Positions 4,520 to 56,166 are shown, numbered from the stretch's first letter. The stretch: 64,000 nucleotides of DNA from Croceibacterium sp. (GCA_039927815.1 JBDSUJ010000034.1:1170-65169); one strand, 5' to 3'. Numbers and translations are program-made. The notes: a model not told the origin generated them from the sequence alone.

Positions 4520-4546
4520 AGGGCGGCACCATGAGGTGCCGCCCTT
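4519..4546. terminator. Bidirectional intrinsic terminator hairpin between convergent gspK and a lipoprotein gene
   Basis: Perfect 12-bp stem AAGGGCGGCACC / GGTGCCGCCCTT with the 4-nt loop ATGA. It starts at the last base of the gspK stop codon. It is followed by TTTC on the + strand and flanked by an A-rich run on the other side. Confidence 0.75.
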
Positions 4547-4552
4547 TCGCAA

Positions 4553-4834
4553 TTAAGCCGCGCCGTTGTCGAGCGGTTCGCTGGCCGGGGCCAGCGGGGG
4601 AACGCAATTCGGCGGCTGGTGGATCGGATCCGATGTCGGGGAAGCGTTGAACGCCGCCGCGAAACAAGACCCAAACAGGCTTTGGAAAGCGACCGAGGGT
4701 GCGGCCGTTGGAGTCGGTGTTGGTGCAGTTGTCGCGGTAGGAGTGGGCGTCCTGCCATTCCCACCACCGCACGCGGCCAGCGAACTGGCCATGACGGCAC
4801 TTCCGCTTAGCCTTAACAGGGTTTTGATGCGCAT
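4553..4834 (-). CDS. Small lipoprotein, unknown function
   Basis: Signal peptide with lipobox SLAAC. Thr/Pro-rich linker TPTPTATTAPTPTPTAAP. GAGGAG Shine-Dalgarno about 8 nt upstream of the ATG. Confidence 0.6.
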   Translation of the reverse strand: MRIKTLLRLSGSAVMASSLAACGGGNGRTPTPTATTAPTPTPTAAPSVAFQSLFGSCFAAAFNASPTSDPIHQPPNCVPPLAPASEPLDNGAA

Positions 4835-4852
4835 GATTGCGAACTCCTCTGC

Positions 4853-6481: not shown

Positions 6482-6556
6482 GACGTGGCTCCTAACCCTC
6501 TGCGACCAAAAACGGCTATTATATTCAATACGATTCGAACTGGGTGCGAGTTGCAT

Positions 6557-7306: not shown

Positions 7307-7385
7307 CGGTCATCACCCCGCCAACGCGTGCGACGCGGCCGGGCAAGCCACTTGCCGGCCCGGCCGCGTCTTTACCCGGGGCCGA

Positions 7386-9347
7386 TCAGAAGGCAACGTG
7401 CGCCCCCGCGGTTACCGAATGGATCCGGCGATCATCACCGAACTGACCCTGGTAATCGATCGCGAACGACACTGGACCGCCGTCCGAAATATTGAGCGAG
7501 GCGCCGGCGTCGTAGTAGTTCCGCTCGAACGGTGAGACCGTGAAGGGGAACGCCGATGTTCCGAGTGTGGGAGACAGGAAGTTCGCGCTGAACACCTGCG
7601 GATCTTTCATGAACTCGTGATACCAGCCGCCGCGGATCTCAGGGCGGACGATCATCCGGCCAGAGGCAAATTGCCCGCCGAGCCGCGCCCCCAGATGGCC
7701 GCGGAGCGATTCGTATTCCTGCGACGAAACGTTGAGCGCGGCGATCGAGCCGCCAGATTCGGAAAAGCCGTCGATCTGGACCTTGGCGTAGCGCACCGCG
7801 CCGAACGGTTCGAGAGTGACCCCGCCGAGATTAAGGGAGGCGCCGACACTTCCGCCGCCCGCGACGATGTCGCCATTTGTCTGGCTAAACGGCGTTGCCG
7901 CGAACGTCCCGAAAGTAACGTCACGCTTCAGGTCGAAGCTGAGATCGGTGTAGCTGCCCCAGGCGTCGACGAACAACGGGCCGAACATCGCAGTTGCGTA
8001 AGCACCGCCGAACCAGCTTTCCAGTTCGCTACGGACCACATTGGCCGACAGGCGCGGACGAACCAGGTTATAACCACCGAAAACGCCAATCGCGGTGCCG
8101 CCCCCCAGCCGATAATCGAGACCGCCGAGTACGTGAGGGCCTTCGAACTGAACTTCAGGGCGATCGGCCGCTGCGTCAAACCGCCCGAACCTGTCGCCGG
8201 CGGCGAACCACGCGCCGATCCGGCCGTCCGGGTCAAGCGTGGTGGCGGCGCCATCGGGCATGACGCCATTGCCGCGTAAGGTGTGGGTGTAACCGAGCAC
8301 GGTGTTTTCAGTGACTTCGACTGGATTGAGGGCCAGTTCGCCCAAGGTCGAAAACGCCGCCGGCGACAGGGCGGTCAGGGCCGCTGACTGAGCCCCAGGC
8401 GTCGCGTAAAGGGCATCAATCGAATTGAACAAGCCCAATGTGGCTGCGGTCGGGATTCCGACGAATTGATCGAGTTGACCGCCAACCGCGGTCTGGTTGG
8501 CGGTGCCGCCCATCGTCGCGAATGGATCGAGTGAGATGGCCAGGCCTTCATACAGCGTATTGCCGCCCAGCGCGCCGATCAGGGTCGCGCTGCCGGTCGT
8601 CAGGTTGATGCGATACAGCGATGTCACCCGGGTAGTCGGATTGGTCAAAGTCGCCAAGGCGGTGCCGTCACGCCCGATGTCGAACCCGACATTTCCGAGC
8701 GTGGTGACGCCGGTCGGGCCGACCGAGAACAGGGTCCCGGTGTTCGGGCTGGTGGTTGCGTTGCCTTGCGTGGCCAGCTGAGCCGGGGCCAAAGCGCCCC
8801 GGGTATCGATCACAAACAGTGTCGTGCTGGTCGCGCCCGCAACGGGGTTGGTGTAGGCCGCGCCCGCGACGTTGACGATGGCACCTGCGAGAGGGTCGCC
8901 GGCGGCATAAGCAAGCGTCCCGTCGTAAGCCGCAAGCGCGCCCGTGTCTGGGTTAAGGCGAAAATCCTGCCGAGTCTGCGTGTCGACCCGAATGCGGTCG
9001 ACGGTCGGGTTGAAGTCGAATGCGATGCCGCCGATCGTGGGGTTCGCCGTGGGCCCGACCTTGGTGGCCACACCGGTACGCGTGTCGATGACATAAACCG
9101 TTCCGACGTTGCTGATCCCGTACAGAACGCGTGGCGCAGCGGGGCGAAAGTCGATCGCCGCGAGGCTGGTGAGCGGGTCCAGACCGGTCACCGTGACGGT
9201 AGATGTTATCGTCCCCGGGCTTGCCGCATTTACAGTGACAATTTTATTGCCACCCGAAATTGTCTTGACCGACTGCGCATCGGCGCTGCCCGAAAACGCC
9301 AACGCCATCGCCCCGGTTGCAGTCGCAACAAGCCAACTTGACTTCAT
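7386..9347 (-). CDS. Autotransporter with DUF4394-like passenger domain
   Basis: Signal peptide MKSSWLVATATGAMALAFSGSADA. The passenger contains LAAIDFRPA...LYGISN.G.VY.ID..TG motifs recalled from DUF4394. The C-terminal ~270 aa has alternating beta-strand character and ends in ...AGAHVAF (terminal aromatic), typical of an autotransporter beta-barrel. Confidence 0.75.
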   Translation of the reverse strand: MKSSWLVATATGAMALAFSGSADAQSVKTISGGNKIVTVNAASPGTITSTVTVTGLDPLTSLAAIDFRPAAPRVLYGISNVGTVYVIDTRTGVATKVGPTANPTIGGIAFDFNPTVDRIRVDTQTRQDFRLNPDTGALAAYDGTLAYAAGDPLAGAIVNVAGAAYTNPVAGATSTTLFVIDTRGALAPAQLATQGNATTSPNTGTLFSVGPTGVTTLGNVGFDIGRDGTALATLTNPTTRVTSLYRINLTTGSATLIGALGGNTLYEGLAISLDPFATMGGTANQTAVGGQLDQFVGIPTAATLGLFNSIDALYATPGAQSAALTALSPAAFSTLGELALNPVEVTENTVLGYTHTLRGNGVMPDGAATTLDPDGRIGAWFAAGDRFGRFDAAADRPEVQFEGPHVLGGLDYRLGGGTAIGVFGGYNLVRPRLSANVVRSELESWFGGAYATAMFGPLFVDAWGSYTDLSFDLKRDVTFGTFAATPFSQTNGDIVAGGGSVGASLNLGGVTLEPFGAVRYAKVQIDGFSESGGSIAALNVSSQEYESLRGHLGARLGGQFASGRMIVRPEIRGGWYHEFMKDPQVFSANFLSPTLGTSAFPFTVSPFERNYYDAGASLNISDGGPVSFAIDYQGQFGDDRRIHSVTAGAHVAF

Positions 9348-9510
9348 GATATTCCCCACCTGTTTAACGCATGCGGGAGCGACCCGCACGTCGTGTGCAT
9401 AGGGTTATACGTCTCCCCGTCGGCAGCGGATGCATCAGCATGAAAATAAAGTTGCCGCGCTTGATTTAATTTTGCTTTTAAAGAAGTCGAAGCTGCCGCT
9501 AGTGGGCAAA

Positions 9511-10296
9511 ATGACACCACCCGACACGCTGCTATTTGGACTTCCGCTCGCGTATTCGATGACATTAGGGATTGTCATCGGCCTCGTCATCGGCAGTTAC
9601 TTAGCGACAACTTATGCAAGATGGCCCCGCAGCCAACGCACCAGCGGCGCGACGCGGTCGGCATGCGACACCTGCCATCGAAAACTTCGCTGGTACGAAT
9701 TGGTTCCGGTGATTTCGTGGCTGACGTTGCGCGGGCGCTGCCTGCGGTGTCACGCACCCATTCCCGGGGTTTATTCGGCGATTGAGGCGCTGTGCGCAAT
9801 TCTTGGAGCGGCGACGTTCGCCATGGGACAGCCTACGCTGGCGCCGTTCGTGTGGATGCTGGTTGCCCTGGCTTTTTTCGACGCGCGGCTGTTGTGGTTG
9901 CCTAATCGGCTGGTGGCAGCGTTGGCGTTGGCGGCTTTGCTGGCGCCTATGCCCGAGCCCAGCGTAAGCCTCACTTGGCGCCTGGCGGCCGGCGTGGGCG
10001 CTGCTGCGGGTCTGTGGCTGATCGCGGCCTCCTATCGGCGATGGCGCGGACGCAACGGGCTGGGCGGCGGAGACATCAAGCTGCTCGGCGCGATTGGTCT
10101 GTGGTGTGGGCCGATGCACTTACCAGCCATCGTGCTGCTGGCGTGCGGCACGGGCCTTGCCGATGCCGCTGGGCGGGTGGCTCGCGGCGCCGATGCGAGG
10201 ACACTGCGCCTCCCCTTGGGGACCTATCTCGCCGGTGCGACGATTTTGTTGGCCGTTGTGAAACCGATCGGGGTTCGAGTCATTGAATGGGCTTGA
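9511..10296 (+). CDS. gspO: Prepilin peptidase (A24 family, PilD/GspO type)
   Basis: N-terminal Cys pairs CDTCHRKL...RGRCLRCHAPI and the catalytic-region motif GGGDIKLLGAIGLW. Start at ATG 9511, or alternatively 9559. Confidence 0.85.
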   Translation: MTPPDTLLFGLPLAYSMTLGIVIGLVIGSYLATTYARWPRSQRTSGATRSACDTCHRKLRWYELVPVISWLTLRGRCLRCHAPIPGVYSAIEALCAILGAATFAMGQPTLAPFVWMLVALAFFDARLLWLPNRLVAALALAALLAPMPEPSVSLTWRLAAGVGAAAGLWLIAASYRRWRGRNGLGGGDIKLLGAIGLWCGPMHLPAIVLLACGTGLADAAGRVARGADARTLRLPLGTYLAGATILLAVVKPIGVRVIEWA

Positions 10297-10443: not shown

Positions 10444-11019
10444 GTGGGTGATAATCAAGCCTTGTCCCACCGATCGGACCACGAGAGGCTTGCAGAAGAC
10501 CTCCAGCAGGTCGGGGACCGTGAATTGCACGCGCTTCATCGCGTCTATAAGGCGACCTCACGGAACCTGTTTGCGATTTGCATGCGGGTAACGCGAAACC
10601 GTGAGACCGCCGAAGACGTATTGCAGGAAGTGTACATCAAAATCTGGAACCGAGCTGCCGGCTATGATCGCGCGCGGGCTCACCCGCTGGTCTGGCTGTC
10701 GGCGATCGCTCGCAATAGCGCGATCGACGCGGTTCGCGCCCAAGGTCGGCACCAATCGCAGGACCTCTCAAGCGTACCGGAACTGGTGGACGACTCTGCC
10801 CCCGTGGATGAAGACATGGTGGCCCGCGAGCAAGAGCAGCGGGCGCTATCGATGCTGGACGAGCTTGCTCCCGATCAACAGGAACATATCAAGGCTCTCT
10901 ACTTTCACGGTATGACCTACGGGGAATTGGCTAACCAGGAAGGTGTTCCTCTCGGCACTATCAAGAGCCGCGTGCGCCGCGGCCTGATCCTGTTGAACGA
11001 ACGGTGGGCCAATGACTGA
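10444..11019 (+). CDS. ECF-type RNA polymerase sigma-70 family factor
   Basis: Region 2 (AEDVLQEVYIKIWNRAAGYD...HPLVWLSAIARNSAIDAVR) and region 4 (ALYFHGMTYGELANQEGVPLGTIKSRVRRGL) are clearly present. GTG start. Confidence 0.9.
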   Translation: MGDNQALSHRSDHERLAEDLQQVGDRELHALHRVYKATSRNLFAICMRVTRNRETAEDVLQEVYIKIWNRAAGYDRARAHPLVWLSAIARNSAIDAVRAQGRHQSQDLSSVPELVDDSAPVDEDMVAREQEQRALSMLDELAPDQQEHIKALYFHGMTYGELANQEGVPLGTIKSRVRRGLILLNERWAND

Positions 11020-11797
11020 CGAGTCTTTGCCCCCCGAAGAGCAGGAAGCCCTGGCAGCAGAGTTGGCACTGGGATTGCTCGAAGGTGAGGAGCGCGCGGG
11101 CGCCCTACGGCGGCAAATGGCTGATACGACGTTCGCGGCCGATGTGGCGCGTTGGGAGCAGGAGATCGCGCGCTGGATCGAAGAGCTTCCGGCCGAACAG
11201 CCGAGCGACGATCACTGGCGGCGGATTGAACGGGCGCTCGTCACCGGAAATGACAACGATGCCGGGTCCGTCAGGGCCTCCTCTTCGGGCGCGGGATGGA
11301 AATGGGGCACGCTTGCCGCGTCGTTGGCCGCAGTCGTGTTTGCGACGCTGTGGGCCGTGCGCGAGCCGCTCGATGCACCGGCGCAGCACGGGCCGATCGT
11401 GGCATCGGCTGGAGGCGTGATCCTTGATCGGAGTGGGCCGCCACAGGTCACGCCGCTAGCGGTCGGCGACCTCCGTGTCGGGCGCGCCGACGTCAATCAG
11501 GACAAGCTGCTGATCCAGGCCGCCTACGACCGTCGCAACGGTGTGTTGCTGCTCCGCCTTGGCGACATTGGCGATTCGACCCGCGTGCCCGAACTGTGGC
11601 TGATTGCGGACTCGGTGCCACGCTCATTAGGGTTTTTCATGCCCGGGGCCGCAGTGAAGACCACGCTGGATGCGCGCGACCGGCGCGCGCTTGAAAACGG
11701 CGCGGTGATCGCGGTCACCTTGGAGGCGCCGAGCGACAAGCCGCATGACAAGCCAGCAGGCCCGGTGCTGGGCAAAGTGGAGCTGTCCGCAATCTGA
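11012..11797 (+). CDS. Anti-sigma factor, RskA-like (single-pass, periplasmic C-terminal domain)
   Basis: Overlaps the sigma gene stop by 8 nt. N-terminal LAAELALGLLEGEER...ARWE helix pattern, central TM (WGTLAASLAAVVFATLW), and C-terminal LWLI...P.SLG...G pattern of the anti-sigma-K family. Confidence 0.75.
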   Translation: MTDESLPPEEQEALAAELALGLLEGEERAGALRRQMADTTFAADVARWEQEIARWIEELPAEQPSDDHWRRIERALVTGNDNDAGSVRASSSGAGWKWGTLAASLAAVVFATLWAVREPLDAPAQHGPIVASAGGVILDRSGPPQVTPLAVGDLRVGRADVNQDKLLIQAAYDRRNGVLLLRLGDIGDSTRVPELWLIADSVPRSLGFFMPGAAVKTTLDARDRRALENGAVIAVTLEAPSDKPHDKPAGPVLGKVELSAI

Positions 11798-11838: not shown

Positions 11839-12204
11839 CTACTTGTTTTCGAGAGTGGTCTTGTCGGCCAGGACGACTCTCACCAGTGAACCGCCTAACT
11901 TTCCGTTTATCAGCGGATGATAAGTCACGGTGACTTGGTCGCCGGGCTTCAGCGACGAGCGGCGCCACCCGCCATGAACGAGGTTGTTGGGGCTGGTCAT
12001 CTCGATGGCGAAGTTGCGTTTGGTGCCGCGAGTGTCAGCGACATCAACATGCATCCATGAATGCGGGTTGGTCCACTTGAAGTCGGTCACTACGGCTGCC
12101 GTGGTGACATCCTTCTTCATGTCGAACATGGCGAAGCTATGGTGCGCCAACGCCGCGCTCGAGGAGGCGGCCAGGATCAGGGTCACGACTGTCTTGCTGT
12201 GCAT
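11839..12204 (-). CDS. Small secreted DUF6152-like protein (paralog A1)
   Basis: 121 aa. Signal peptide ends AALA, followed by HHSFAMFD. Conserved W.NPH, GWRRSSLKPGD. One of four paralogs in the window. Confidence 0.8.
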   Translation of the reverse strand: MHSKTVVTLILAASSSAALAHHSFAMFDMKKDVTTAAVVTDFKWTNPHSWMHVDVADTRGTKRNFAIEMTSPNNLVHGGWRRSSLKPGDQVTVTYHPLINGKLGGSLVRVVLADKTTLENK

Positions 12205-12216
12205 GGTCTGCGCTCC

Positions 12217-12633
12217 TCAGTTCGTGGTCGGGACGTTGATCGGGCCGGTGCCGGTACGGATGTCGCCCAGCACGCGGCCGTCCGCCATCGTCACGTTCTT
12301 AAATAAGCCGCCCTTCTTGCCGCTCCGCAGTGGATTGAGGACCAGCGTCACCTTGTCGCCGGCTTTCAGAGACGAGCGGCGCCACCCTTGCCGCGTGAGA
12401 TTGTTCGGGCTGTTCAGCTCGACGCTCCAGCGCACTGGGGGTCCGCTTGCACCGGCGACGTCGAGTTCGATGAAAGCGTGCGGGTTGGTCCACTGGAATT
12501 GAACAACCTGGCCTTTGAGGGTGACGGCTTTGGCCTGGTCGAACATGGCGAAGCTGTGGTGGGCGCTGGCCGGGGCGGCACTGGTCACCGCCACCAGGGC
12601 GGCTCCGGCGATAATGGGGTTCCAAAAGCTCAC
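12217..12633 (-). CDS. Small secreted DUF6152-like protein (paralog A2)
   Basis: 138 aa. Signal peptide ends PASA, followed by HHSFAMFD. Conserved WTNPH, GWRRSSLKAGD. 12 nt upstream of paralog A1. Confidence 0.8.
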   Translation of the reverse strand: MSFWNPIIAGAALVAVTSAAPASAHHSFAMFDQAKAVTLKGQVVQFQWTNPHAFIELDVAGASGPPVRWSVELNSPNNLTRQGWRRSSLKAGDKVTLVLNPLRSGKKGGLFKNVTMADGRVLGDIRTGTGPINVPTTN

Positions 12634-12648
12634 GTCAGGTCCTTTCGC

Positions 12649-13539
12649 TCATTTCGTCTTTGCGCGCTCGTCCAGCGTCTGCTGACCGCGGTCGGTGCCG
12701 GGCAGGTTGGCATTGCGTGCCTCGGTACATTCGACCTCGCCAATGTCCGCTTCTGGCACTCGGTCCCACCGCTTGGTGTTGTGCCACTCCCCTTTCCAAT
12801 TATCGGGGTCGGTCATGATATATTCGATTTCGAGGACCTGCCCCGCGTTGAGAAGCTTGATGCGCTCCACCATGTGAAACTTCTCGCCGACGGGCAGTCC
12901 CTGATCGATCCAGTGGTGATCGGTTTCAAAGCCCTGCGTGTCCACGATCAGCGTGTCGTCCTCCCAATGGCCGAGGGATTCGCCGTTGTACGTCGGAACA
13001 TAGATGTCGGGATCGGTATGCGCGCGGCCGTCGAGGTAGATGGTGCGGAAACTGTTGGTGAAGCCGGCGGTCATGTAGATGGCCGTCGGTACCTGGACGA
13101 ACATGATCGGCCACACGCGCGTCATGATCATCGGCATGCCGGCGGGATAGCATTGGCCGATGCTGTCGCGGTAATTGACGCCGCGCGCGCGAGACGCCGC
13201 ACCTTCGACGAGAGCTTTTTTTCCTGCGTCGTAAAACTCGGGATAAGGCGGCCCGAACATGAACTTGTTGAACCCGGCGCTCAGGTCGATGAACCAGGTT
13301 CCGGTCATGTCGAACGGCGGCTTGGGCCGCGGCTTGGCGAGGTTGGCCGGATCGAGTGCGCCCGCGAGGCCGGGATGGCGTTGCTGCATTACTTCGAGCT
13401 GTTCGGGCGGGATGGCGCGCGTTCTGTCTCGCTCCTGCGCGGCAACCGGCGCGACAGCCACCACGACCGCCGTCAGCGCCAGCCCGCAGTGGCGGGCACA
13501 CCTCGTCAAATCGATGGCACCAATGGTCCTTTTTGTCAT
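12649..13539 (-). CDS. Periplasmic protein of unknown function (partner family, copy P-A)
   Basis: 296 aa. N-terminal signal/anchor GLALTAVVVAVAPVAAQE. Shares motifs C.P.GMP.IM, R.IY.DGR.H.D, GESLGHWEDDTLIVDT, HMVERIKL and ECTE with ORFs 61529-62278 and 62733-63521. Confidence 0.75.
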   Translation of the reverse strand: MTKRTIGAIDLTRCARHCGLALTAVVVAVAPVAAQERDRTRAIPPEQLEVMQQRHPGLAGALDPANLAKPRPKPPFDMTGTWFIDLSAGFNKFMFGPPYPEFYDAGKKALVEGAASRARGVNYRDSIGQCYPAGMPMIMTRVWPIMFVQVPTAIYMTAGFTNSFRTIYLDGRAHTDPDIYVPTYNGESLGHWEDDTLIVDTQGFETDHHWIDQGLPVGEKFHMVERIKLLNAGQVLEIEYIMTDPDNWKGEWHNTKRWDRVPEADIGEVECTEARNANLPGTDRGQQTLDERAKTK

Positions 13540-13581
13540 CCCCGTAGCACTCCCGCCACCCGCCGTCGAATTCGATTCGGC

Positions 13582-13618
13582 ATAGTTGACATTGCAATTA
13601 GAATAGTTGACCTGTCAA
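13582..13618. promoter_or_regulatory. Candidate operator/promoter elements in the divergent intergenic region of cluster A
   Basis: Direct repeat ATAGTTGAC at 13582-13590 and 13603-13611 (21-bp phasing). Palindrome TTGAC-CT-GTCAA at 13607-13618. On the minus strand, TTGACA (13618-13613), a 16-nt spacer and TGCAAT (13596-13591) form a plausible sigma-70 promoter for the 296-aa gene. Confidence 0.35.
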
Positions 13619-13722
13619 GAAAGTCAAGGCGAGTGAACGAACGCAAGTTCAGCCACATCGACCGATTGGGCGCTTCAATACACTGTTTAATAATAATAAA
13701 TAATCGTGCGAGGGGGGAAGTT

Positions 13723-16323
13723 ATGACGACACAGGGGGCGACGTCGGGATTTGGGCTGCAGGCGATTCGATCCACGGCGCTGATCGGTGCCGGCTGGCTC
13801 GCACTAGCGGCAAACGCCGCACACGGGCAGGCAGTCGCCCAACAGCCGCGGGCGACCGACGCCAACGCCGCCAAGGACGCCAACGGCACCAACGCCGAGA
13901 GCGATGACGGCACGCGGACCACGGACATCGTGGTGACCGCTGAACGCCGAGCGATGAACCTGCAGGATACGCCGCTCTCGATCCTGGCGGTGACGCAGGA
14001 GACGGTCGAGGCAAAGGGTATCCAGGATCTTCAGGACCTGTCGCACTTCACGCCGAACCTCAACATCACGCCGACGCGCGGCAACGGCACGGGTGCGGTC
14101 AACTTTACCATCCGAGGCATTTCAGGCGGCGGCGGCGCGGCAGGCGAGCGCGGCGTCGGCCTTTATGTCGACGGCATTTTCATGCCCCGCACCAGCGGCT
14201 CCGTGCTGCGCGTGCTCGATATCGACCGGATCGAAGTGCTGCGGGGGCCGCAGGGCACCCTGTTCGGACGCAATTCGACCGGCGGCGCGATCCGAATCTT
14301 CAGCAAGCAACCGACCGATGTTCTCGAAGGCTCGCTGGAAGTCACCGGCGGAAATTTCGATCGTCGTGATGTTGTCGGCATGATCAACGTGCCGCTCGGC
14401 AATGGCTTCGCGGTGCGGGCGCAGGGCGCATACCTCAACAAGGGCGGCTTTGTCCGACGTGGTACCGAGATGCTCGGCGCCGAAAGGGATTATGTTGGCC
14501 GCATTCAGGTGGCGGGTGAGTTAACTCCTGACCTAAAAATCACCGCAGGCTTTCTCTACAACAAGTCGGAAGCCAACGGTTCGCCGTTCGTGGTCCAGGA
14601 ATTCGACTTGCGGCCTGGCATCGACGGGATCATCCAGGGCAATTACGGCGGCTGGCTAAACGATGCCTTCAAGGCTGCGGGCCAAGCACCAATCGCGCCT
14701 TATAACGACCCCCGCTTTGTCAAGGGCCCGTACGCGGCGTCGGACGTGTGCTTCCTCGATGATTTCGACCCCGATTACGACCCCGCCTGCAACCAGATCA
14801 ACAATGATGACTACTGGCAGGCAGATTTGCGGATCGACTGGAAGCCGACCGACGATTTGAGTGTGCACTCGATCTCCGGTTACTCGAAGCTCAAGCATCG
14901 GGCGCAGAACGATCTGGAAATGATCGGCTTCGAACGACGCTATGACGACATCGATTCAAAGGTATTCTATCAGGAACTGCAGCTCAACGCGGCGCTGCTT
15001 AACAACGCGATCGATCTGGTTACCGGTGTGACGTACTTCCACGAAGACAGCGCGGCGCCGAACAATTACGTTCTCAACCGGCGCGGCACCGCCACGTATC
15101 CGAGTAACAAGGGCAATCCGCCCAATTCAGACGGCGGCCTGTACACGCGCACTATCAGCGACGTGTTCCAGACCTCGGATTCGTTCGGGCTATTCGGCAG
15201 CGCCACCTGGCACATCATCGACGGCCTCAACCTGACGGGCGGCTTGCGTCAGGCGTGGGACCACAAGGACTATCGCCAGAACCGCTACCAACCGCCGACG
15301 ACGCAGTTCCAGGGCCCCGACTTTGTCTTTCGGCCAGGAGTGACTTCGTCATCCGCATCGAAGAGTCAGTCGTTCCAGGCGCTCGATTATCGTGCGACGC
15401 TCGATTATCACTTCACGCCCGATATCATGGCCTATGCCACGGTATCCAAGGCGTACAAAGCAGGCTCCTTCAGCGCGACGCTACAGGGCTACACCCCACC
15501 CCCGGCCACGGCACCGCCAGGCACCTTGGGCATCGGCGGCGACGCGAACCAGGACAGTATCGTCGCGACGCTGCCGAATGAAAAGGTCATCAATTACGAG
15601 GCGGGCGTACGCGCCACGCTGTTTGATCGCCGCCTGCGGATTAACCCGACCATCTTCAAGATGGAATGGAGCAACCGTCAGGCGGCCGTGCGCGTCAATT
15701 GCGGGACCGCGGGGACGGCGCTTGCTAACCTGGTCGCCGGCAGCGCCGCGTGCCCGGTCGGCTTCTTGCCACTTGTGCAGGACCAAGGCACCGCTAAGAT
15801 CAAGGGCCTCGAGGTTGATGCGCAGCTCGTGCTGATCCCTGGGCTGACGCTGGACGGCAACCTGGGACTGACCGATTACAAGCTGACCAATGTTCCGGTC
15901 GTTGCGGCGGGCGCGTTCCCGATCGCTCACTTGTTCCCCGACATTCCTAAAATCAGCTACAGCCTGGGCTTCTCTTACGGCATCCATGAAGCCTTCGGGC
16001 GGGCAACGATGAGCGTGAACTACGCGTTCGTCGGCAAGCAATGGGTCTACCCCGACGACAATCCCGATTCGACCTACCGGCTCCCGTCCTATGGCCTGGT
16101 GAATGCGCGGTTCCAGATCGAACCGGCCAACTTGCCGATCACTTTGACGATCGCAGCGAACAACCTGCTTGGCGAAGTTTACGCGACTTACGCCCAGCGG
16201 TTCGGCGGCGGGTTCTGGGATTCGGGCGCAGGTACGGGCATTGCAGCTCCGCCGCGCAATATGCTGAGCGTGGTTCGTGGCCGCCCGCGCGACCTGAGCC
16301 TGTCGCTGAAGTACAGCTTCTGA
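13723..16323 (+). CDS. TonB-dependent receptor (cluster A)
   Basis: Real start is ATG 13723, preceded by GAGGGGGGAAG. Signal peptide ends ANAAHG. Plug-domain motifs DIVVTAERR...LQDTP.SI and IEVLRGPQGTLFGRNSTGGAIRI. C-terminal barrel ends SLKYSF. No N-terminal signalling (STN) extension. Confidence 0.9.
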   Translation: MTTQGATSGFGLQAIRSTALIGAGWLALAANAAHGQAVAQQPRATDANAAKDANGTNAESDDGTRTTDIVVTAERRAMNLQDTPLSILAVTQETVEAKGIQDLQDLSHFTPNLNITPTRGNGTGAVNFTIRGISGGGGAAGERGVGLYVDGIFMPRTSGSVLRVLDIDRIEVLRGPQGTLFGRNSTGGAIRIFSKQPTDVLEGSLEVTGGNFDRRDVVGMINVPLGNGFAVRAQGAYLNKGGFVRRGTEMLGAERDYVGRIQVAGELTPDLKITAGFLYNKSEANGSPFVVQEFDLRPGIDGIIQGNYGGWLNDAFKAAGQAPIAPYNDPRFVKGPYAASDVCFLDDFDPDYDPACNQINNDDYWQADLRIDWKPTDDLSVHSISGYSKLKHRAQNDLEMIGFERRYDDIDSKVFYQELQLNAALLNNAIDLVTGVTYFHEDSAAPNNYVLNRRGTATYPSNKGNPPNSDGGLYTRTISDVFQTSDSFGLFGSATWHIIDGLNLTGGLRQAWDHKDYRQNRYQPPTTQFQGPDFVFRPGVTSSSASKSQSFQALDYRATLDYHFTPDIMAYATVSKAYKAGSFSATLQGYTPPPATAPPGTLGIGGDANQDSIVATLPNEKVINYEAGVRATLFDRRLRINPTIFKMEWSNRQAAVRVNCGTAGTALANLVAGSAACPVGFLPLVQDQGTAKIKGLEVDAQLVLIPGLTLDGNLGLTDYKLTNVPVVAAGAFPIAHLFPDIPKISYSLGFSYGIHEAFGRATMSVNYAFVGKQWVYPDDNPDSTYRLPSYGLVNARFQIEPANLPITLTIAANNLLGEVYATYAQRFGGGFWDSGAGTGIAAPPRNMLSVVRGRPRDLSLSLKYSF

Positions 16324-16385: not shown

Positions 16386-16880
16386 CTACGACAGCCCGCT
16401 CGCAGGCTCATCATCGACAGGCGGCGAGCGTTGGGCATCAACGCGCGTGGCGATGGTGGTGAGGGTCGTATCAAAGACCAGCTTCTGCTTCGGGGTCAGG
16501 TCCTGCAGGATCGCTTCGAAATAGCGGGTCCTCATCGCGGTGATCTTTTCGAAAACCTCGCGCCCGGCCGGGGTTTCCGTGATAATCTTGAATTTGCGGT
16601 TCCTGGAGCTTGATTCCCGCACCACCAGGCCATTGCGGATCAAAGAAGCAACCGCGCGGCTGACCAGGCCCGGGTCGATCTCGAATGACGACGATACGTC
16701 GACGGCAGTCGCGGGCCCAAACGAACAAGTCACCGCGATCACGCGCCATTCTGACACCGACACGTTGAACCGGGCTTGCATTTCGCGGGCCAGTTCGCGC
16801 TCCACCATGCGGGTCAACAGGTGCATCCGCAAAGGGATGAAATACTCGCCAGTCTGGCTCCAGGTGCGAGGCAAGGACAT
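16386..16880 (-). CDS. MarR family transcriptional regulator
   Basis: 164 aa. Winged-helix core VSVSEWRVIAVTCSFGPATAVDVSSSFEIDPGLVSRAVASLIRNGLVVRESSSRNRKFKIITETPAGRE. Confidence 0.85.
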   Translation of the reverse strand: MSLPRTWSQTGEYFIPLRMHLLTRMVERELAREMQARFNVSVSEWRVIAVTCSFGPATAVDVSSSFEIDPGLVSRAVASLIRNGLVVRESSSRNRKFKIITETPAGREVFEKITAMRTRYFEAILQDLTPKQKLVFDTTLTTIATRVDAQRSPPVDDEPASGLS

Positions 16881-17011: not shown

Positions 17012-17551
17012 TTACACTGCTTTGTAGAAGCGTATTTTGACTGCGGGTTCGCCCTTGGGTCCCTTGGCGCCTTCAAGCGTTCCGACGAACGCGGTCTGCC
17101 CGAGCCATTGGTATTTGCCCAAGGGAGCCTCGAAGCGCGGTGAAGTGCGCGCCGGTTTTGGAGCTTCCCCGGGCTTCGGCATGCACAGCGCGCCGTCGTT
17201 CACGACGTTGATGATCACACCGTCGTCGGTCTTTAGCATGTAGTCGGCGTGAACGTCGACGCAGCCGTCGGCGCGGACCAGTTGCCAGTCCCAACCGCCG
17301 GGAATGATCGTGCCCCTGATTCCCGGGCCTTCAAAAGTCCCGCTGGTGATGGGGATCAGGTTGCGGCTTCCGTAGGGCGTCTTGCCCGGCACGATCGCGG
17401 AGGAGAGCGTGACCAGTTCTTCAAACGCGAACTCGAGGCGGGGTGAATTTGGCGCAGGATTATCCGCCGCGGCCAGGGGGCCGCACACAAGTCCCGCAGC
17501 CAAGCCTAGTCCCAGCCGGCGCACCCGATCGATCGATCTCATCAGCTTCAT
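17012..17551 (-). CDS. Secreted DUF3237-like protein
   Basis: Start at MKLMRSIDRVRRLGLGLAAGLVCGPLAAA, with GAGGGG upstream. The body (PYG.R..IPITSGTFEGPGIRGTI.PGG.DWQL.R.DG...V.A.Y.L.TDDG..I) matches my memory of DUF3237/UPF0311. Confidence 0.7.
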   Translation of the reverse strand: MKLMRSIDRVRRLGLGLAAGLVCGPLAAADNPAPNSPRLEFAFEELVTLSSAIVPGKTPYGSRNLIPITSGTFEGPGIRGTIIPGGWDWQLVRADGCVDVHADYMLKTDDGVIINVVNDGALCMPKPGEAPKPARTSPRFEAPLGKYQWLGQTAFVGTLEGAKGPKGEPAVKIRFYKAV

Positions 17552-17594
17552 CCCCTCTTCTGACTGCCTTAGCATGACGCCGCGCCAATGGCCG

Positions 17595-18260
17595 TCAATC
17601 CTCTCCGAAGTGCACCGACTCGTCCAGTCGAGAGAGGAAATCCAGCCCGTTGATCACGTGGGCTCGCATCGCACTCTCCGCCGCCTTTGCATCGCCCGCC
17701 ATCACGGCATCGACGATGACGCGGTGGTCCTGAACCGCGGCGCGCAGGCGCTCCCCGCGGTAGAATGTCTCGAACACCAGATGATGGATCGGGGTATTCA
17801 GCCGCTGGACAATGCTCTTGATCACATGGTCGCCCGCCCCGTCCATGATCAGGTTGTGCCATTGCGCGTTCAGACGTGAGAACTGTTCCGGCGCGGGCCC
17901 CGCCACACACGCTTCCATCTGTTCGGCGATGGCGTTCAGTTCGGCCTTTTGCGCTGCGCTTGCTCGCGCGGTAAAATCGGCGGCACAGATGCCCTCCATC
18001 GCCCCCCGAGCATGATAGAGCTGGCGCACTTCCTCCATCGTCGCATTTCGGACCGACGCCCCCCGGAATTCCTCGACATCAACTAGACCTTCCGCGTCCA
18101 GGCGCTGGAGCGCCTCGCGCACCTTGAAACGGCTGCCCCCGGTCTGACGAATTATGTCGATTTCGACCAGACGCTGGCCCGGAACGAGCCTCCTGCGGCG
18201 GATCTGGCCACGGACCCAATCAGCAATCTCGACCGACGATGGCCCCTTTTTTTCTAACAT
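17595..18260 (-). CDS. GntR family transcriptional regulator (FadR/FCD subfamily)
   Basis: N-terminal winged helix (IADWVRGQIRRRRLVPGQRLVEIDIIRQTGGSRFKVREALQRLDAEGLV) plus a helical C-terminal ligand domain. Confidence 0.9.
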   Translation of the reverse strand: MLEKKGPSSVEIADWVRGQIRRRRLVPGQRLVEIDIIRQTGGSRFKVREALQRLDAEGLVDVEEFRGASVRNATMEEVRQLYHARGAMEGICAADFTARASAAQKAELNAIAEQMEACVAGPAPEQFSRLNAQWHNLIMDGAGDHVIKSIVQRLNTPIHHLVFETFYRGERLRAAVQDHRVIVDAVMAGDAKAAESAMRAHVINGLDFLSRLDESVHFGED

Positions 18261-18388
18261 TTGCAGTCTCGTTGACTTGAAAGGGCAGTCTCCTGGTAAT
18301 CAGCGATATTGTCAACAATTTCGTCATCGTGATTTTCGTTGCACTGTCGCCGCGCGTGGCCTTGATGGCAGTTGGAGGAGAGAGGTTC

Positions 18389-20092
18389 ATGGCGACTAGG
18401 CGCGTGAGCGCGATGGCGCTGGCGTTATTGTGCAGCGGTCCGCTCGCCGCGCAGCCGTACCCTGATGTGCTCGTCCAATCGCGTTACGTCAAAGTGCGTG
18501 ACGGCACCCGCCTCGCCATCAGCATTTACCGGCCCGCAACCGGCCCGTCGGCCACGCAGGCGCGCCTGCCCGTGGTGTTCGCCTTCACACCCTATCGCGC
18601 GCGTTATCGCGCCCCTGACGGAAAGATCACCGAGGCCGCCTTAGGCGACAACCTGGGTATGCGCTCGCTGTTGCGCGCCGGATATGTCGTGGCCGTTGCC
18701 GATGTCCGCGGCAAGGGGGCCTCGTTCGGGCATCGCCGGGGTTTCCAGGACCGGACCGAGGCGCAGGACGGCTACGATCTCGTCGAATGGCTGGCGCACC
18801 AGCCCTTTGCCGATGGCAAGGTGGGGATGGTCGGTTGCTCGTACTTGGGAGGGTCCGCCTTCCAGGTTGCGACAACTGCACCCCCGTCGTTGAAGGCCGC
18901 GTTCATCGGCGCGAGCGACCTCGACAAATACGCCTTTGTCCGAAACGGCGGGATCACCGCACAATTCAACACGCGGCCCGATGAAGAGCCGGCCGTCGAC
19001 CTCGCCACCGTTCCGATGGACGAGGACAAGGATGGCGCGATGCTGCGCGCTGCCGTCGCAGAGCACGCGGCGAACACGCCGATGGGTCCACTGTGGTACG
19101 GGATGCCCTACCGGGACAGCCAGTCCGCCTTTACCAAGACCGCGTTCTGGGAAGAAGTCGGGCCTTACACATATCTCGACAAGGTAAAGCGGGCGGGGAT
19201 TGCCACTTACTTCTGGGGCAACTGGCAGGACGAGCCCACCAGCCAGATCATCCTCTCGGCCGCCAACCTGGGAAGTCGTATGCTCGCCGGGCCGGGCGGC
19301 CATTGCGTGCCACCTCCGGGTTTTGACTTGCCGGGAGAGATCGTCGGCTTTTTCGATCATTATCTGAAGGGCCTGAACCACGACTATGGTCGCCTGCCGC
19401 GTGCGACTTACTGGGTCGAGGGGCTGGGCGGAACCGGCCGCTTCGTGATCAGCAACGAACTGCCGGGCGTCGAGTCCCGCCCGGTTCCATGGTATCTCGC
19501 CGCCGCCACGGGTGCGCCCGGGTTGGACAGTTCGACAGCGCCGCTGGAGACTACCGCTTCCTTCAAGGTCGATTACGATCTTCCGCCGGCGGACTATTTC
19601 GCATTCTGGCCTGGGCCCATGGGTGCAAAAGGGCTGAGCTTCACCAGCGCGCCCGTTTCTCAACCGATCAAGCTCATCGGGTATCCGGTGGCCCAATTGA
19701 CGGTGGCGTCCGACAATCCCCAGGCCGACGTCTTCGTTTACCTCGATCGCATCAAGGTGGACGGCAAGGCGGATGTTGCTGCGTTTGGTCGCCTCAAGCT
19801 ATCGCACCACAAGCTAGCGCAGGCCCCTTACAACACCCTCGGGTTGCCGTGGCACTCTGGGCTTCAGGCGGATGTCGCTCCGCCGGCCCCGGGGGAAGCG
19901 GTGCCGCTGTCGATTGCGCTGACGCCTGTTTCGCTGGTCGTCGCGCCGGGCGAGCGGTTGCGCTTCGTGGTCACGGGCGCCGACCCGCGCCAGCGCAATT
20001 TGAAGGCCATTCGGCTCAATCCCGCCCCGCAGATCACCGTGCGCGTGGGCGGCCCAGCCGGTTCTCGCATCGATCTGCCGTTGGCTCCGTGA
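18389..20092 (+). CDS. Secreted CocE/NonD family hydrolase (S15 X-Pro dipeptidyl-peptidase-like alpha/beta hydrolase)
   Basis: Start at MATRRVSAMALALLCSGPLAAQ (GGAGGAG upstream). Motifs RDGTRLAISIYRP, GYVVAVADVRGKGASFG, and the nucleophile elbow GMVGCSYLGG. Confidence 0.85.
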   Translation: MATRRVSAMALALLCSGPLAAQPYPDVLVQSRYVKVRDGTRLAISIYRPATGPSATQARLPVVFAFTPYRARYRAPDGKITEAALGDNLGMRSLLRAGYVVAVADVRGKGASFGHRRGFQDRTEAQDGYDLVEWLAHQPFADGKVGMVGCSYLGGSAFQVATTAPPSLKAAFIGASDLDKYAFVRNGGITAQFNTRPDEEPAVDLATVPMDEDKDGAMLRAAVAEHAANTPMGPLWYGMPYRDSQSAFTKTAFWEEVGPYTYLDKVKRAGIATYFWGNWQDEPTSQIILSAANLGSRMLAGPGGHCVPPPGFDLPGEIVGFFDHYLKGLNHDYGRLPRATYWVEGLGGTGRFVISNELPGVESRPVPWYLAAATGAPGLDSSTAPLETTASFKVDYDLPPADYFAFWPGPMGAKGLSFTSAPVSQPIKLIGYPVAQLTVASDNPQADVFVYLDRIKVDGKADVAAFGRLKLSHHKLAQAPYNTLGLPWHSGLQADVAPPAPGEAVPLSIALTPVSLVVAPGERLRFVVTGADPRQRNLKAIRLNPAPQITVRVGGPAGSRIDLPLAP

Positions 20093-20143: not shown

Positions 20144-22864
20144 ATGATTATTGACAAGCAGGGGCTCCGCCCCGCGATCTTGATGCTGGGCGTTTCGCTG
20201 GGCACGCTGGCGATGGCCAGTCCCGTTTCCGCGCAAGACCGTCCGGTGCCCAGCGCGACAGTTCCGGCCGACCCTGAGGGCGCCGGTCCAACTCCTGTTA
20301 CCGATACGCCTCCCGAAACGATCGTGGTGACAGGAAGCCGGTTGCGCGGCGTAGCGCCAGTTGGGTCCAGCGTCATCGCGCTGGGCCGCGCGGAGATCGA
20401 AAGCTCAGGCGCGGTGACCATCGACCGGATAATCAAGGAAATCCCGCAGAACTTCGACCTGGGCGTGTCCGAGAACTCGCGCGGCCAGTCGGGCGGGAGC
20501 GGCAATATCACGTACGGCAACTCGGTCAACTTGCGGGGGATCGGCCCTTACGCGACCCTGGTGATCATCGATGGCCACCGCGTGACCAGCAACAGCCGTT
20601 CGATCGACCCCTCGGTGCTGCCCTCGCTCGGTGTTGAACGGGTCGAGGTCGTCGCCGACGGCGCGTCGGCGATTTACGGGTCGGACGCCGTGGCGGGGGT
20701 CGTCAACTTGATCCCGCGTCGCACGCTCGATGGCGGCGAAATGTTTGCCCGCAGTGGCTTTTCGGACGGGGGCGACTTTAGCGAAAAGGCGGTTGGCCTG
20801 GCACTGGGCAAGCGCTTTTCGCGCGGACAAATCATGATCGCGGGCGAGCATGTGGAACGTTCCAACCTCTCGGGCGACGACCGCAATTTCTTCGTCAGCA
20901 ATCAACTCCCGTTCGGCGGCACTGACGGGCGAACCACGCGCTGCAATCCCGGCAACATCCGAGTCGGTTCCACGTTCTACGCCATTCCAGCCGGCGGGGT
21001 CACCCAGGCGAACGCCGGATCTCTGGTGGCAGGCACGCGCAACTTGTGCGAGCTGCTGCGGGGCCAAGACCTGATCCCCGAACAGAGCTACAATACCGTG
21101 AATAGCACGGGCACGTTCGACATTACGGGCAGCATCAGTCTGTTCTACGATGCGTTCTATTCCAAGCGCGATTTCTACCGCCGCGGCAGCTACATCGCGC
21201 TTAATAACGTGAACGTGCCGCAGACGAATGCATTCTTCGTGCGCCCGGCTGGATTTGCCGGCAACAGCTACGGCATCGATTACCTCGCTTTGGAACTTCC
21301 GCCCGGCAACACCGCCGGTTACGCCAAGAGCTGGCAGGTAACCCCCGGGATCCGCGTCAAACTGCCGCACGATTTCCAATTCGAAGCGCTGGTTGGGCGC
21401 GGCAAGACCGATGACTTCTCGGGCCTCTATACCGCGGTTAATAATGGCGCGCTCACTACGGCGTTGGCCAGCAGCGACCCGGCCAAGGCGCTCGACGTCT
21501 ATGGTCTCGGACGGACCAATCCGGCGATCTTGCCGGGGTTGGCTGACAATATCTTCCTAGCGCCGACCAACGGCGACTTGTGGACCTACGCAGCCCGGAT
21601 CAACGGATCCTTGGTGGATCTGCCGGGCGGTTCGGTTAAGCTGGCGGCGGGGTTCGAGCGGCAGGACTTCAACGTGGCGCTGGGGTCCGCGCGCGGTGGA
21701 CCAACCCTGCCGATCACTTACCGCAACTTCGGCCGTACCGTGGATTCTTTCTATGGCGAGTTGTACATCCCGATCTTCGGGCCGGGCAACGCGATACCGG
21801 GGTTCGAGCGGCTGGAACTGAACGCCGCGGTCCGACATGACAAGTACAGCGACGTTGGCTCGACCACCAATCCAAAGTTTGGGATCAACTGGTCGCCAAT
21901 CGACGCGGTCAAGCTGCGCGCCAGTTACGGCACATCGTTCCGTGCGCCCACTATCCCCGAAATCTACGGCAATTCGAACAACCTGTTCGTCCAACCCTAT
22001 TCCAACCCCGCCGGCGGGACCATTATCGGGGTAGCCTTGTCCGGCCAGAACCTCGACCTCACGCCGGAAACCGCAAAGACTTGGTCGGTGGGCGCGGATA
22101 TCACGCCCGTGCCGCGGCTGCGCCTCGGCGCGACCTACTGGAGCGTGAATTACGACAACCAGGTCGTCGCCAATCTGTCGAACCTCGCGATCCTAGGCAG
22201 CGAAGCGTTCTACGCGGGCACCGGCATCATCCTGCGTGGGGCGGAAGCGGCCGCGAAGGTCGCCGCGCTGAACGGTTCCGGCGTCGGCTTCAGTGGCGTG
22301 CCACCCGTGCCGGTGACCCTGTTCGTCGACGGGCGCGGGCGCAACCTGGGCACTTCGGTTACGCGCGGTATCGACGTCGTCCTCGATTGGCGGATCAACT
22401 TGACCCCGCAGGACATGATCTCACTCAATGCAGCGGGAACGTACCTCACCACTTACCGCGTTGCCGCAACCCCGAACGCCCCGCAGATTGACCGCCTGAA
22501 CACCATCTTCAATCCGCTGCGATTCAAAGCGCGGTCCAGCGTTTCGTGGGATCACGCTCCGTTCAATGTTCGCGCCACGTGGACGCACATCAACGGGTAC
22601 ATCAACAACGTGCCCACGGTGCCGCAGCAGGTGGGCAGTTTCAACCCGGTCGATCTTGCGATCACTTTCAAGGTCGGAGACGAGTCGGCGAGCGGCTTTG
22701 TCGCCAAGGGCGCTTCGGTCACGCTCGAAGTTCGCAACGCCTTTGACGAGGCGCCGCCTTATGTGAACATAACCCCCAGCGGAAACGGCAGCGGGGGTTA
22801 CGATGCCTCTGCAGCCGATCCGATCGGGCGCTTGTTTGCCGTGAGCGTCAGGAAATCTTTCTAG
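20144..22864 (+). CDS. TonB-dependent receptor
   Basis: 906 aa. Signal peptide ends SPVSAQD. Plug motifs ETIVVTGSRLRG, VERVEVVADGASAIYGSDAVAGVVNLI. C-terminal ...FAVSVRKSF. Confidence 0.9.
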   Translation: MIIDKQGLRPAILMLGVSLGTLAMASPVSAQDRPVPSATVPADPEGAGPTPVTDTPPETIVVTGSRLRGVAPVGSSVIALGRAEIESSGAVTIDRIIKEIPQNFDLGVSENSRGQSGGSGNITYGNSVNLRGIGPYATLVIIDGHRVTSNSRSIDPSVLPSLGVERVEVVADGASAIYGSDAVAGVVNLIPRRTLDGGEMFARSGFSDGGDFSEKAVGLALGKRFSRGQIMIAGEHVERSNLSGDDRNFFVSNQLPFGGTDGRTTRCNPGNIRVGSTFYAIPAGGVTQANAGSLVAGTRNLCELLRGQDLIPEQSYNTVNSTGTFDITGSISLFYDAFYSKRDFYRRGSYIALNNVNVPQTNAFFVRPAGFAGNSYGIDYLALELPPGNTAGYAKSWQVTPGIRVKLPHDFQFEALVGRGKTDDFSGLYTAVNNGALTTALASSDPAKALDVYGLGRTNPAILPGLADNIFLAPTNGDLWTYAARINGSLVDLPGGSVKLAAGFERQDFNVALGSARGGPTLPITYRNFGRTVDSFYGELYIPIFGPGNAIPGFERLELNAAVRHDKYSDVGSTTNPKFGINWSPIDAVKLRASYGTSFRAPTIPEIYGNSNNLFVQPYSNPAGGTIIGVALSGQNLDLTPETAKTWSVGADITPVPRLRLGATYWSVNYDNQVVANLSNLAILGSEAFYAGTGIILRGAEAAAKVAALNGSGVGFSGVPPVPVTLFVDGRGRNLGTSVTRGIDVVLDWRINLTPQDMISLNAAGTYLTTYRVAATPNAPQIDRLNTIFNPLRFKARSSVSWDHAPFNVRATWTHINGYINNVPTVPQQVGSFNPVDLAITFKVGDESASGFVAKGASVTLEVRNAFDEAPPYVNITPSGNGSGGYDASAADPIGRLFAVSVRKSF

Positions 22865-37272: not shown

Positions 37273-37378
37273 GAACCAAACATCCAGGCAGCCATCGGCG
37301 CTATCCCATTTATTCTCTTATGCAGGAATTTTATCGGCGAAACCGGCCGGGCGTGCAATAGGCGAGCGCGGAGGAAAC

Positions 37379-56129: not shown

Positions 56130-56166
56130 GCTTCCCCCTTGTTCCGGCCGTTTACGACGGCCGCGA

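Follow-up and report, generated by a model that had tools for sequence, protein, structure and literature searches.

What do two families of small exported proteins do beside a TonB-dependent receptor? The question is raised by a 64,000-nucleotide (nt) stretch of Croceibacterium sp. DNA (GCA_039927815.1 JBDSUJ010000034.1:1170-65169; hereafter the window), in which a receptor gene at one end of positions 11,839–16,323 (cluster A) stands divergent from an operon for two DUF6152 proteins (D proteins) and an exported partner (P protein). An earlier note, made from this sequence alone, took the receptor and the two families for one dedicated module, as the set recurs at 58.9–64.0 kb (cluster B). 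Our data reveal that the D–P pair, not the receptor, is the evolutionary unit and that the receptor is a recurrent but optional partner, so that a receptor together with the two families represents one frequent use of a two-protein module that stands on its own. For cluster A as a whole we propose, with a probability of roughly 0.4, a MarR-controlled receptor uptake locus in which D is the metal subunit and P the ligand-holding barrel for the imported compound.

Organization of cluster A

Cluster A and the regulator gene next to it comprise the following features.

11839–12204, minus strand: A1, DUF6152 (D) protein, 121 amino acids (aa); Pfam PF19649, E = 2.7e-32
12217–12633, minus strand: A2, DUF6152 (D) protein, 138 aa; Pfam PF19649, E = 1.1e-37
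12649–13539, minus strand: P-A, exported partner (P) protein, 296 aa; no Pfam or NCBIfam family
13540–13722: divergent spacer between P-A and receptor A, 183 nt; candidate control region
13723 (ATG)–16323, plus strand: receptor A, TonB-dependent receptor, 866 aa; Pfam Plug, E = 2.8e-18, and TonB barrel, E = 2.7e-39
16386–16880, minus strand: MarR-family regulator, 164 aa; Pfam MarR_2, E = 2.3e-09; just past receptor A and convergent with it

The gene positions, the gaps of 12 nt between A2 and A1 and 15 nt between P-A and A2, and the shared 183-bp spacer, all described in the earlier note, were reproduced by our list of open reading frames (ORFs) together with Pfam and NCBIfam scans, and the two tandem DUF6152-like proteins that it named, A1 and A2, both match Pfam DUF6152. 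Its view that all four products are envelope proteins also held, as direct reading of the sequence finds an N-terminal signal peptide on every one and Pfam identifies the receptor domains. D and P carry sites for signal peptidase I rather than lipoboxes. The signal peptide of A1 reads ...SSSAALA at its end and that of A2 ...AAPASA, and in both cases the mature protein begins HHSFAMFD. Receptor A has a signal peptide, the TonB box DIVVTA (in TTDIVVTAERR) and a C-terminal Phe. P-A finds its exact match in a metagenome-assembled Croceibacterium genome, of the order Sphingomonadales. Thus, the genes had been placed correctly in the earlier note; the MarR gene and the His-His N-terminus, which proves to be invariant, had been overlooked.

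The D–P pair as a conserved unit

A degenerate-pattern scan of 185,579 species genomes located at least 551 places that encode P relatives, and 80 of these loci, from other genomes, were kept. The selection comprises the best-scoring tblastn hits and is not random; the ORFs of these loci, which are heuristic six-frame calls, were searched with profiles made from the window proteins and their homologues. By record title, they span Sphingomonadales, Caulobacterales, Steroidobacteraceae, other Gammaproteobacteria and many Acidobacteriota. A P gene lies within 600 bp and on the same strand for 84 of the 96 D domains found, while D is present in 61 of the 80 P loci. Twelve natural D–P fusion ORFs occur in 7 loci, each with the layout signal peptide, DUF6152, linker, P, and 5 further fusions came from an independent library, with Pfam confirming an N-terminal DUF6152 in each. 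One natural fusion lies in the locus L010 at 8952–10253 and another in L075 at 3838–4962 (minus strand). Because of this tight same-strand linkage and the natural fusions, we regard D and P as cooperating subunits. The order is D then P in all 17 fusions; as separate genes, the two occur in both orders (45 D-first, 43 P-first). As a P-then-D fusion would bury the D N-terminus, the uniform order suggests that this terminus must stay free.

The P family is large, and the D–P pair is widespread in soil bacteria. An exhaustive profile search of 1.84 billion cluster representatives returned 12,446 P-family representatives at E ≤ 1e-3, of which 6,121 also pass E ≤ 1e-10, each standing for a cluster at 50% identity, in the architectures single P, tandem P–P and D–P. 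Paralogues are often numerous within a locus; L046 alone (L numbers denote individual loci) has 6 P and 5 D genes. A search of sphingomonad plasmids gave 8 replicons, all annotated hypothetical. Hence, of the dedicated module that had been proposed, the D–P part is borne out by linkage (84 of 96) and by the fusions, and the receptor turns out to be an optional rather than an obligate third part.

Cluster B contains two D–P pairs

The second set of genes in the window is arranged as follows.

58910–61477, plus strand: receptor B, TonB-dependent receptor, 855 aa; Pfam Plug, E = 3.4e-16, and barrel, E = 1.1e-39
61529–62278, minus strand: P249, P-family protein of the short type, 249 aa; 26% identity to P-A, E = 5e-15; profile match, E = 9.3e-68
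62278–62667, minus strand: D129, DUF6152 protein, 129 aa; Pfam, E = 1.6e-29; mature N-terminus HHSFAVFFDD
62733–63617, minus strand: P294, P-family protein of the long type; 37% identity to P-A, E = 2e-24
63529–63969, minus strand: D146, DUF6152 protein; Pfam, E = 4.7e-32; mature N-terminus HHSYAMFD

Receptor B, which has a signal peptide, the TonB box EIVVTA (in GEIVVTAQFR) and a C-terminal Phe, converges on minus-strand D146, P294, D129 and P249, that is, on two D–P pairs. The gene set therefore does recur at 58.9–64.0 kb as claimed, with a composition other than the one partner and two DUF6152 proteins given for it. The D129 stop codon overlaps the P249 start codon. The start of P294 is uncertain (ATG 63617, ATG 63557 or GTG 63521, the last being 7 nt past the D146 stop), and D146 likely starts at ATG 63897 (MKKATLIL...), which would give 122 aa. 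All four window D proteins score 102–128 bits against a Pfam DUF6152 (PF19649) gathering score of 27. P-A shares 37% identity with P294 and 26% with P249, the D proteins are 35–51% identical to A1, and the receptors are 25–37% identical. With identities this low, clusters A and B are old paralogues rather than the product of a recent duplication.

Altogether, the window contains 4 D, 3 P and 4 receptor genes, and 2 of the receptors have no neighbouring D or P. By a rough estimate, both D/P clusters would lie within about 200 bp of a receptor, as they do, in well under 1% of random placements.

Two further elements adjoin receptor B. A spacer of 230 bp separates it from the divergent gene of an exported 306-aa protein with no Pfam family (57759–58679, minus strand), which may be part of cluster B. 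At the other end of the receptor gene, the 51-nt gap between the convergent stops of receptor B and P249 holds a GC-rich hairpin, GGGCGCCG-N7-CGGCGCCC (61490–61512), which is likely a bidirectional terminator.

Linkage of the D–P pair to receptors

Receptors were detected with iterated proteobacterial profiles and with a second profile for the acidobacterial type that combines CarboxypepD_reg and OMP_b-brl_4 domains, all built from the same 80 loci. In 19 of the 80, the edge of a receptor gene lies at most 1 kb from the D/P cluster, and 16 of the 19 have a receptor ORF of 500 aa or more. The receptor density per 100 kb, compared within the same loci and with no phylogenetic correction, is 9.7 at 0–1 kb versus 0.7–3.0 at 1–10 kb.

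The arrangements vary. The receptor gene is divergent from P-D-D(-P) in the window, in Sphingobium xanthum NL9 (L001) and in a Sphingobium locus (L081), and it is co-directional, as receptor-P-D-D-P, in L002 and L003. A plasmid of Croceibacterium atlanticum 26DY36 (L084) has the co-directional order D-D-P-receptor-MarR, with a P protein 31% and a receptor 26% identical to those of the window. In three further genomes the receptor is 1–2.5 kb away with other genes between. Orthologues of D129 and P249 are kept together in 37 of 37 metagenome loci, a narrower count giving D129 next to P249 orthologues without exception in 28 metagenome loci. Receptor B orthologues (75–80% identity) stand directly upstream of and co-directional with them in L088, L107 and L113; among cluster-B-type loci for which 4 kb or more of upstream sequence is available, 3 of 13 have an adjacent receptor and 10 of 13 have none. 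The neighbour in Acidobacteriota is a transporter of ~1,170 aa with CarboxypepD_reg and OMP_b-brl_4 domains (L061, 1641–5156, and 9 other loci). Because the acidobacterial loci carry this other transporter type, the link between D/P and a transporter crosses receptor classes. Co-occurrence with TonB receptors, for which the earlier note had suggested a gene-neighbourhood check, thus extends beyond this genome, to three A-type arrangements and three B-type metagenome contigs.

Two large G8-domain proteins (5018–7735 and 13034–15613) enclose the D-D-P-receptor-MarR block of the C. atlanticum plasmid.

The D protein has an invariant His-His N-terminus

His-His directly follows the inferred signal-peptidase I cleavage site in all four window copies and in 93 of the 93 D domains that could be scored; the remaining 3 of 96 are truncated. 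The preceding residue is Ala in 86, Gly in 4 and Ser in 3, and positions −18 to −5 of the signal region are 93% hydrophobic or small residues. Across the 96 D domains, which come from three phyla, H25, H26, P51 and H52 (A2 numbering) are 100% conserved, E72 96%, N50 94% and D32 93%. Outside these positions the sequence drifts to ~35% identity, and D has no conserved Met. A metal site built on the amino terminus is the simplest explanation for the invariant free His1-His2 and the conserved Asp, His and Glu, and this conservation pattern suggests that D is a new kind of metal-binding protein.

In the AlphaFold2 model of A2 (mean predicted local distance difference test (pLDDT) score 80.6) the protein forms a five-strand barrel of the oligonucleotide/oligosaccharide-binding (OB) type with a helix between strands 3 and 4, and D is therefore predicted to be an OB-fold protein. 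Foldseek searches of the PDB with the model returned only generic OB-folds, SSB and the anticodon-binding N-domain of LysRS, at E ~1e-3, and neither single-protein nor profile searches found a sequence or profile relative of D in the PDB. The possibility that D is a CusF homologue was rejected, as hhalign gave a probability of 1.8%.

The P protein is predicted to be a calycin-like barrel

The AlphaFold2 model of P-A (mean pLDDT 81.8) is an antiparallel β-barrel with a flanking helix. Its best PDB matches in Foldseek are CRABP2 and the fatty-acid-binding proteins (FABPs), with E values of 8.5e-5 to 1e-3, template modelling (TM) scores of 0.55–0.63 per target and 12–15% identity. This similarity is weak and one of fold only, and on it P is predicted to be a calycin-like barrel. 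Conserved in P are Cys130 (99%), Cys271 (98%), R165, E225, D244 and a GxSxGxWEGDTLVV hairpin; no His or Met is conserved. The two cysteines probably form a disulfide in the periplasm. Searches of 49 P proteins at E ≤ 5 matched neither a lipocalin/FABP family nor any other Pfam family, P-A has no NCBIfam match, and sequence and profile searches found no PDB relative of P. Look-ups of the exact P-A and P249 sequences gave no recorded entry for either. We also found no mention of DUF6152 or PF19649 in the literature searched, which agrees with the earlier statement that no function has been described for either small family.

The receptor and its MarR-family neighbour are of a known kind

By sequence, receptors A and B are TonB-dependent receptors, each with a Plug followed by the barrel, a signal peptide, a TonB box and a C-terminal aromatic residue. 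Pfam finds no STN signalling extension in either, and they are thus not transducers of extracytoplasmic function (ECF) sigma signalling. Receptors A and B score 123.6 and 155.2 bits, respectively, against the siderophore receptor model TIGR01783, whose cut-off is 223.5 bits, and both fall below the cut-off of every NCBIfam subfamily and equivalog model, metal and siderophore subfamilies included. A polysaccharide locus of the SusC/SusD type was also rejected, as TIGR04056, with its cut-off at 368 bits, scores the receptors at only 32 and 28 and no SusD is present. In its receptor and MarR part, the locus conforms to a known kind.

A MarR gene is found near all six A-type loci with an adjacent receptor (the window, L001, L002, L003, L081 and L084). 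The spacer of cluster A contains an array of TTGAC/GTCAA repeats at 13583–13627, in which TAGTTGAC occurs twice and is followed by TGTCAA and GTCAA, with an inverted repeat at 13586–13618. The array overlaps promoter-like hexamers on both strands, and it aligns with the equivalent spacers of two Sphingobium loci. The pattern TTGAC-N18-26-GTCAA occurs 2 times in the window, versus 0.27 expected. The array is a plausible candidate for a MarR operator, and cluster A is probably under MarR control.

Another pair of regulatory genes converges on A1 from its other side.

10444–11797: ECF sigma factor (Sigma70_r2/r4) and anti-sigma factor with an RskA_C domain

In the loci examined, the usual Sphingomonadales cassette is P(long)-D-D-P(short). 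Cluster A is without the last P, and the sigma/anti-sigma pair, which is missing from the orthologous loci, occupies the site of their second P gene. The pair was ruled out as the regulator of cluster A, as receptor A has no signalling domain and the orthologous loci lack the pair. On the far side of the MarR gene, between it and the next receptor locus, an exported DUF3237 protein (17012–17575, minus strand) is encoded beside a GntR/FCD regulator (17595–18260).

Catabolic genes around the clusters

The following genes of the window lie outside the two clusters.

20144–22864: TonB-dependent receptor without D or P; follows a hydrolase of the S15/CocE-NonD type (18329–20092)
38648–41209: TonB-dependent receptor without D or P; follows two MFS transporters (35008–36252 and 37169–38644)
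55569–56207: SnoaL_4 protein, flanking the RPE65-family gene
56167–57840, minus strand: dioxygenase of the RPE65/carotenoid-oxygenase family, E = 3e-105; two genes from receptor B

The window, a catabolic island, encodes two FAD aromatic-ring hydroxylases, fumarylacetoacetase, family III CoA-transferases, a SnoaL-like protein, MFS and TRAP transporters and the RPE65-family dioxygenase. A twin-arginine motif at the N-terminus of the RPE65-family protein, VKRREFMGATLG...AARA, points to an enzyme that cleaves stilbenes or carotenoids in the periplasm. A link between D/P and retinoids, drawn from the CRABP-like fold and this neighbour, was dropped; the gene is not recurrent in the 80 loci and was found again only in Tsuneonella.

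Elsewhere, related P-D-D(-P) cassettes lie among genes for RPE65, GMC oxidoreductase, LigB, VanA-type Rieske oxygenase, SDR and GST proteins, with regulators of the MarR, TetR and IclR types nearby. Across the 80 loci the recurrent neighbours include pyrroloquinoline quinone (PQQ) dehydrogenases, NHL/SGL propellers, Amidohydro_2, zinc-dependent alcohol dehydrogenases (Zn-ADH) and MFS transporters, and no single family is dominant.

Discussion

The data described here lead us to a mechanism in which the joint uptake locus is formed by the receptor A gene and the divergent operon for three Sec-exported periplasmic proteins. D would bind a transition-metal ion via its free N-terminal His in the manner of a histidine brace, with the His1 amine and imidazole as candidate ligands, along with a subset of His2, Asp8, His28 and Glu48 (mature numbering). 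D would dock on P, whose barrel would hold a small hydrophobic or aromatic compound delivered by the receptor, and the D–P complex would modify this compound, most likely by oxidation, or pass it on in the periplasm before inner-membrane transport. MarR would sit on the TTGAC/GTCAA repeats of the 183-nt spacer, and the substrate would release both promoters. The imported substrate is probably organic, aromatic or hydrophobic, a choice favoured because of the catabolic gene context, the many paralogues and the Ddv precedent described below. A wider proposal can be framed, though we consider it unlikely: DUF6152 may represent an unrecognised OB-fold class of histidine-brace-like metalloprotein that, with P, forms a widespread two-subunit periplasmic and probably oxidative enzyme for receptor-imported recalcitrant hydrophobic or aromatic compounds in soil diderms (Sphingomonadales, Steroidobacteraceae, Caulobacterales and Acidobacteriota).

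A number of observations weigh against the mechanism proposed for cluster A. The known histidine-brace proteins are β-sandwiches (Ig, FnIII or cupredoxin-like), not OB-folds, and the D model has a low-confidence N-terminal segment, with pLDDT <50 at residues 23–25. The match of P to FABP and CRABP is weak, with a root mean square deviation of 6–8 Å (about 7 Å). The neighbour census (Pfam, 148 flanking ORFs, one of three batches) is heterogeneous, with at most 3 members per family, and includes no obvious redox partner; nor did a search reveal a third operon partner that is constant, with singletons making up 114 of the 143 flanking ORFs on the same strand. No receptor lies within 1 kb in 61 of the 80 loci; adjacency is inflated by genomes rich in receptors, and no phylogenetic correction was applied to the enrichment. 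Finally, several neighbours speak for metal handling instead. A PF04120 ('low affinity iron permease') gene follows the P249 orthologues on the same strand in 18 loci (of L086–L120), a HupE_UreJ_2 gene and a receptor stand beside the P-D-D-P cassette of L124, and DUF6644 four-helix membrane proteins are encoded near D/P in 6 of the 80 loci (for example L043, 10469–10966). The PF04120 product is a small, two-helix membrane protein, encoded in L090 at 8770–9189 after a 29-bp gap downstream of the D129-P249 orthologues, and an AsnC/Lrp regulator lies upstream in 7 loci. Two DUF6644 genes stand in tandem on a Novosphingobium humi plasmid (L085, 6149–7124); we found no literature mention of the family, and the window has neither a PF04120 nor a DUF6644 gene.

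These last neighbours are what would be expected if the locus served metal acquisition or trafficking, with the receptor importing a metal or chelate, D acting as a His-His metallochaperone, P as an accessory for metal binding or docking, and the metal being passed to small inner-membrane permeases. The PF04120 gene directly downstream of the D129-P249 orthologues, HupE_UreJ_2 with a receptor next to P-D-D-P and the recurrent DUF6644 proteins would all fit, as would the invariant His-His plus Asp, His and Glu of D, itself a small periplasmic OB-fold protein and thus of the fold class of CusF. However, the flanking regulators are of the MarR, TetR, IclR, AsnC or GntR types, with no Fur, Zur, CueR or two-component metal sensor seen, and the census is without metal-efflux or ABC metal-uptake genes. 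For a homeostasis factor, the paralogues per locus and genome are very numerous, no His, Met or free Cys is conserved in P, the hhalign probability for D and CusF is the 1.8% given above, and the receptors score below every NCBIfam metal and siderophore cut-off. We therefore consider metal trafficking possible but rather doubtful.

The paralogue number, which would be consistent with many ligands, could instead reflect a passive shuttle, in which P, resembling a lipocalin, takes hydrophobic substrates over from receptors or porins and delivers them to inner-membrane transporters, D has a docking or structural role and His-His is a protein recognition element; the calycin/FABP-like fold of P and the frequent receptor and MFS neighbours would suit such a carrier. 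This we judge improbable, as His1, His2, Asn-Pro-His and Glu are 94–100% conserved across phyla while a recognition peptide is normally less invariant, and the fusion order in 17 of 17 cases, with its free N-terminus, fits amino-terminal ligation better. Whether receptors are involved at all is the point on which a different explanation turns, namely that D–P is autonomous (for example in envelope stress or detoxification) and merely sits inside receptor-rich catabolic islands. That 76% of the loci have no receptor within 1 kb, that two of the four receptors in the 64-kb window are without D or P and that operon partners are so variable (114 of 143 singletons) are in keeping with such autonomy. 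Yet receptor density is ~3–14x higher beside the module than 1–10 kb away in the same loci, the adjacency outlasts rearrangement among the relatives of cluster A and is seen again in Acidobacteriota, there with another type of receptor, and the co-directional receptor-P-D-D-P and receptor-D-P arrangements have gaps of only ~70–140 bp. An uncoupled D–P pair accordingly appears to us distinctly unlikely.

The closest precedent for the locus as a whole is the uptake of the lignin-derived biphenyl 5,5'-dehydrodivanillate (DDVA) in Sphingobium sp. SYK-6, which involves the receptor DdvT, the MFS transporter DdvK and the MarR repressor DdvR (PMC6874591). Both systems combine a sphingomonad TonB receptor with a flanking MarR gene in a catabolic context, and neither locus is of the iron or siderophore type. 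The Sphingobium locus L081 has MFS, MarR and receptor genes in a row, and in cluster A the MarR gene adjacent to the receptor is accompanied by the conserved TTGAC/GTCAA repeat as a candidate operator. By contrast, no periplasmic accessory proteins are described for the Ddv system (PMC6874591), whereas a P-D(-D-P) operon is attached here. The locus is thus a TonB-dependent uptake locus with a novel periplasmic accessory pair, and the D–P module is without a characterised relative.

D and P can also be compared with known protein families. In the histidine-brace proteins (the LPMOs of families AA9 and AA10, CopC, YcnI and PmoB), signal cleavage exposes His1, whose amine and side chain chelate copper. 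D resembles them in being exported, in its invariant mature His1 and further conserved His, Asp and Glu, and in an N-terminus that is kept free; it differs in its predicted OB-fold, its two consecutive N-terminal His and the lack of any sequence similarity. As the five-strand OB barrel predicted for D is not a β-sandwich, D falls in no known histidine-brace family, and we found no literature that links a histidine brace with an OB-fold or with TonB-dependent systems. CusF, the periplasmic OB-fold Cu(I)/Ag(I) chaperone of E. coli, has a His-Trp-Met-Met site. D is likewise predicted to be a small periplasmic five-strand OB barrel tied to envelope transport, but it is without this site, has N-terminal His instead and has an obligatory barrel partner in P. 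ZinT (YodA) is a periplasmic calycin-like zinc-binding protein with a His-rich N-terminus and serves as an uptake accessory. The D–P module also combines a periplasmic calycin-like barrel with an N-terminal His segment, but on separate proteins, the barrel being P, which has no conserved His, and the His N-terminus belonging to D; the 50 best fold matches of the P model do not include ZinT. The intracellular lipid-binding proteins CRABP2 and FABP4/5/7, up-and-down β-barrels with a hydrophobic ligand inside, match the P model best, though weakly; P is twice as long, is exported and has conserved cysteines and an N-terminal extension. The D–P module could therefore be categorically new.

Non-iron TonB receptors are abundant in soil and aquatic bacteria, and the periplasmic fate of their cargo is mostly unknown. 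The D–P pair is a large uncharacterised module, with at least 12,446 P clusters at 50% identity that have no Pfam model and thousands of DUF6152 proteins. If D and P proved to be a metal chaperone pair instead of the metal-dependent pair that we propose for imported organic compounds, they would constitute a new branch of periplasmic metal trafficking. If the proposed metal site is true, a new fold would join the small set of histidine-brace proteins, and the module would offer a handle on how sphingomonads and Acidobacteria treat plant-derived or humic compounds.

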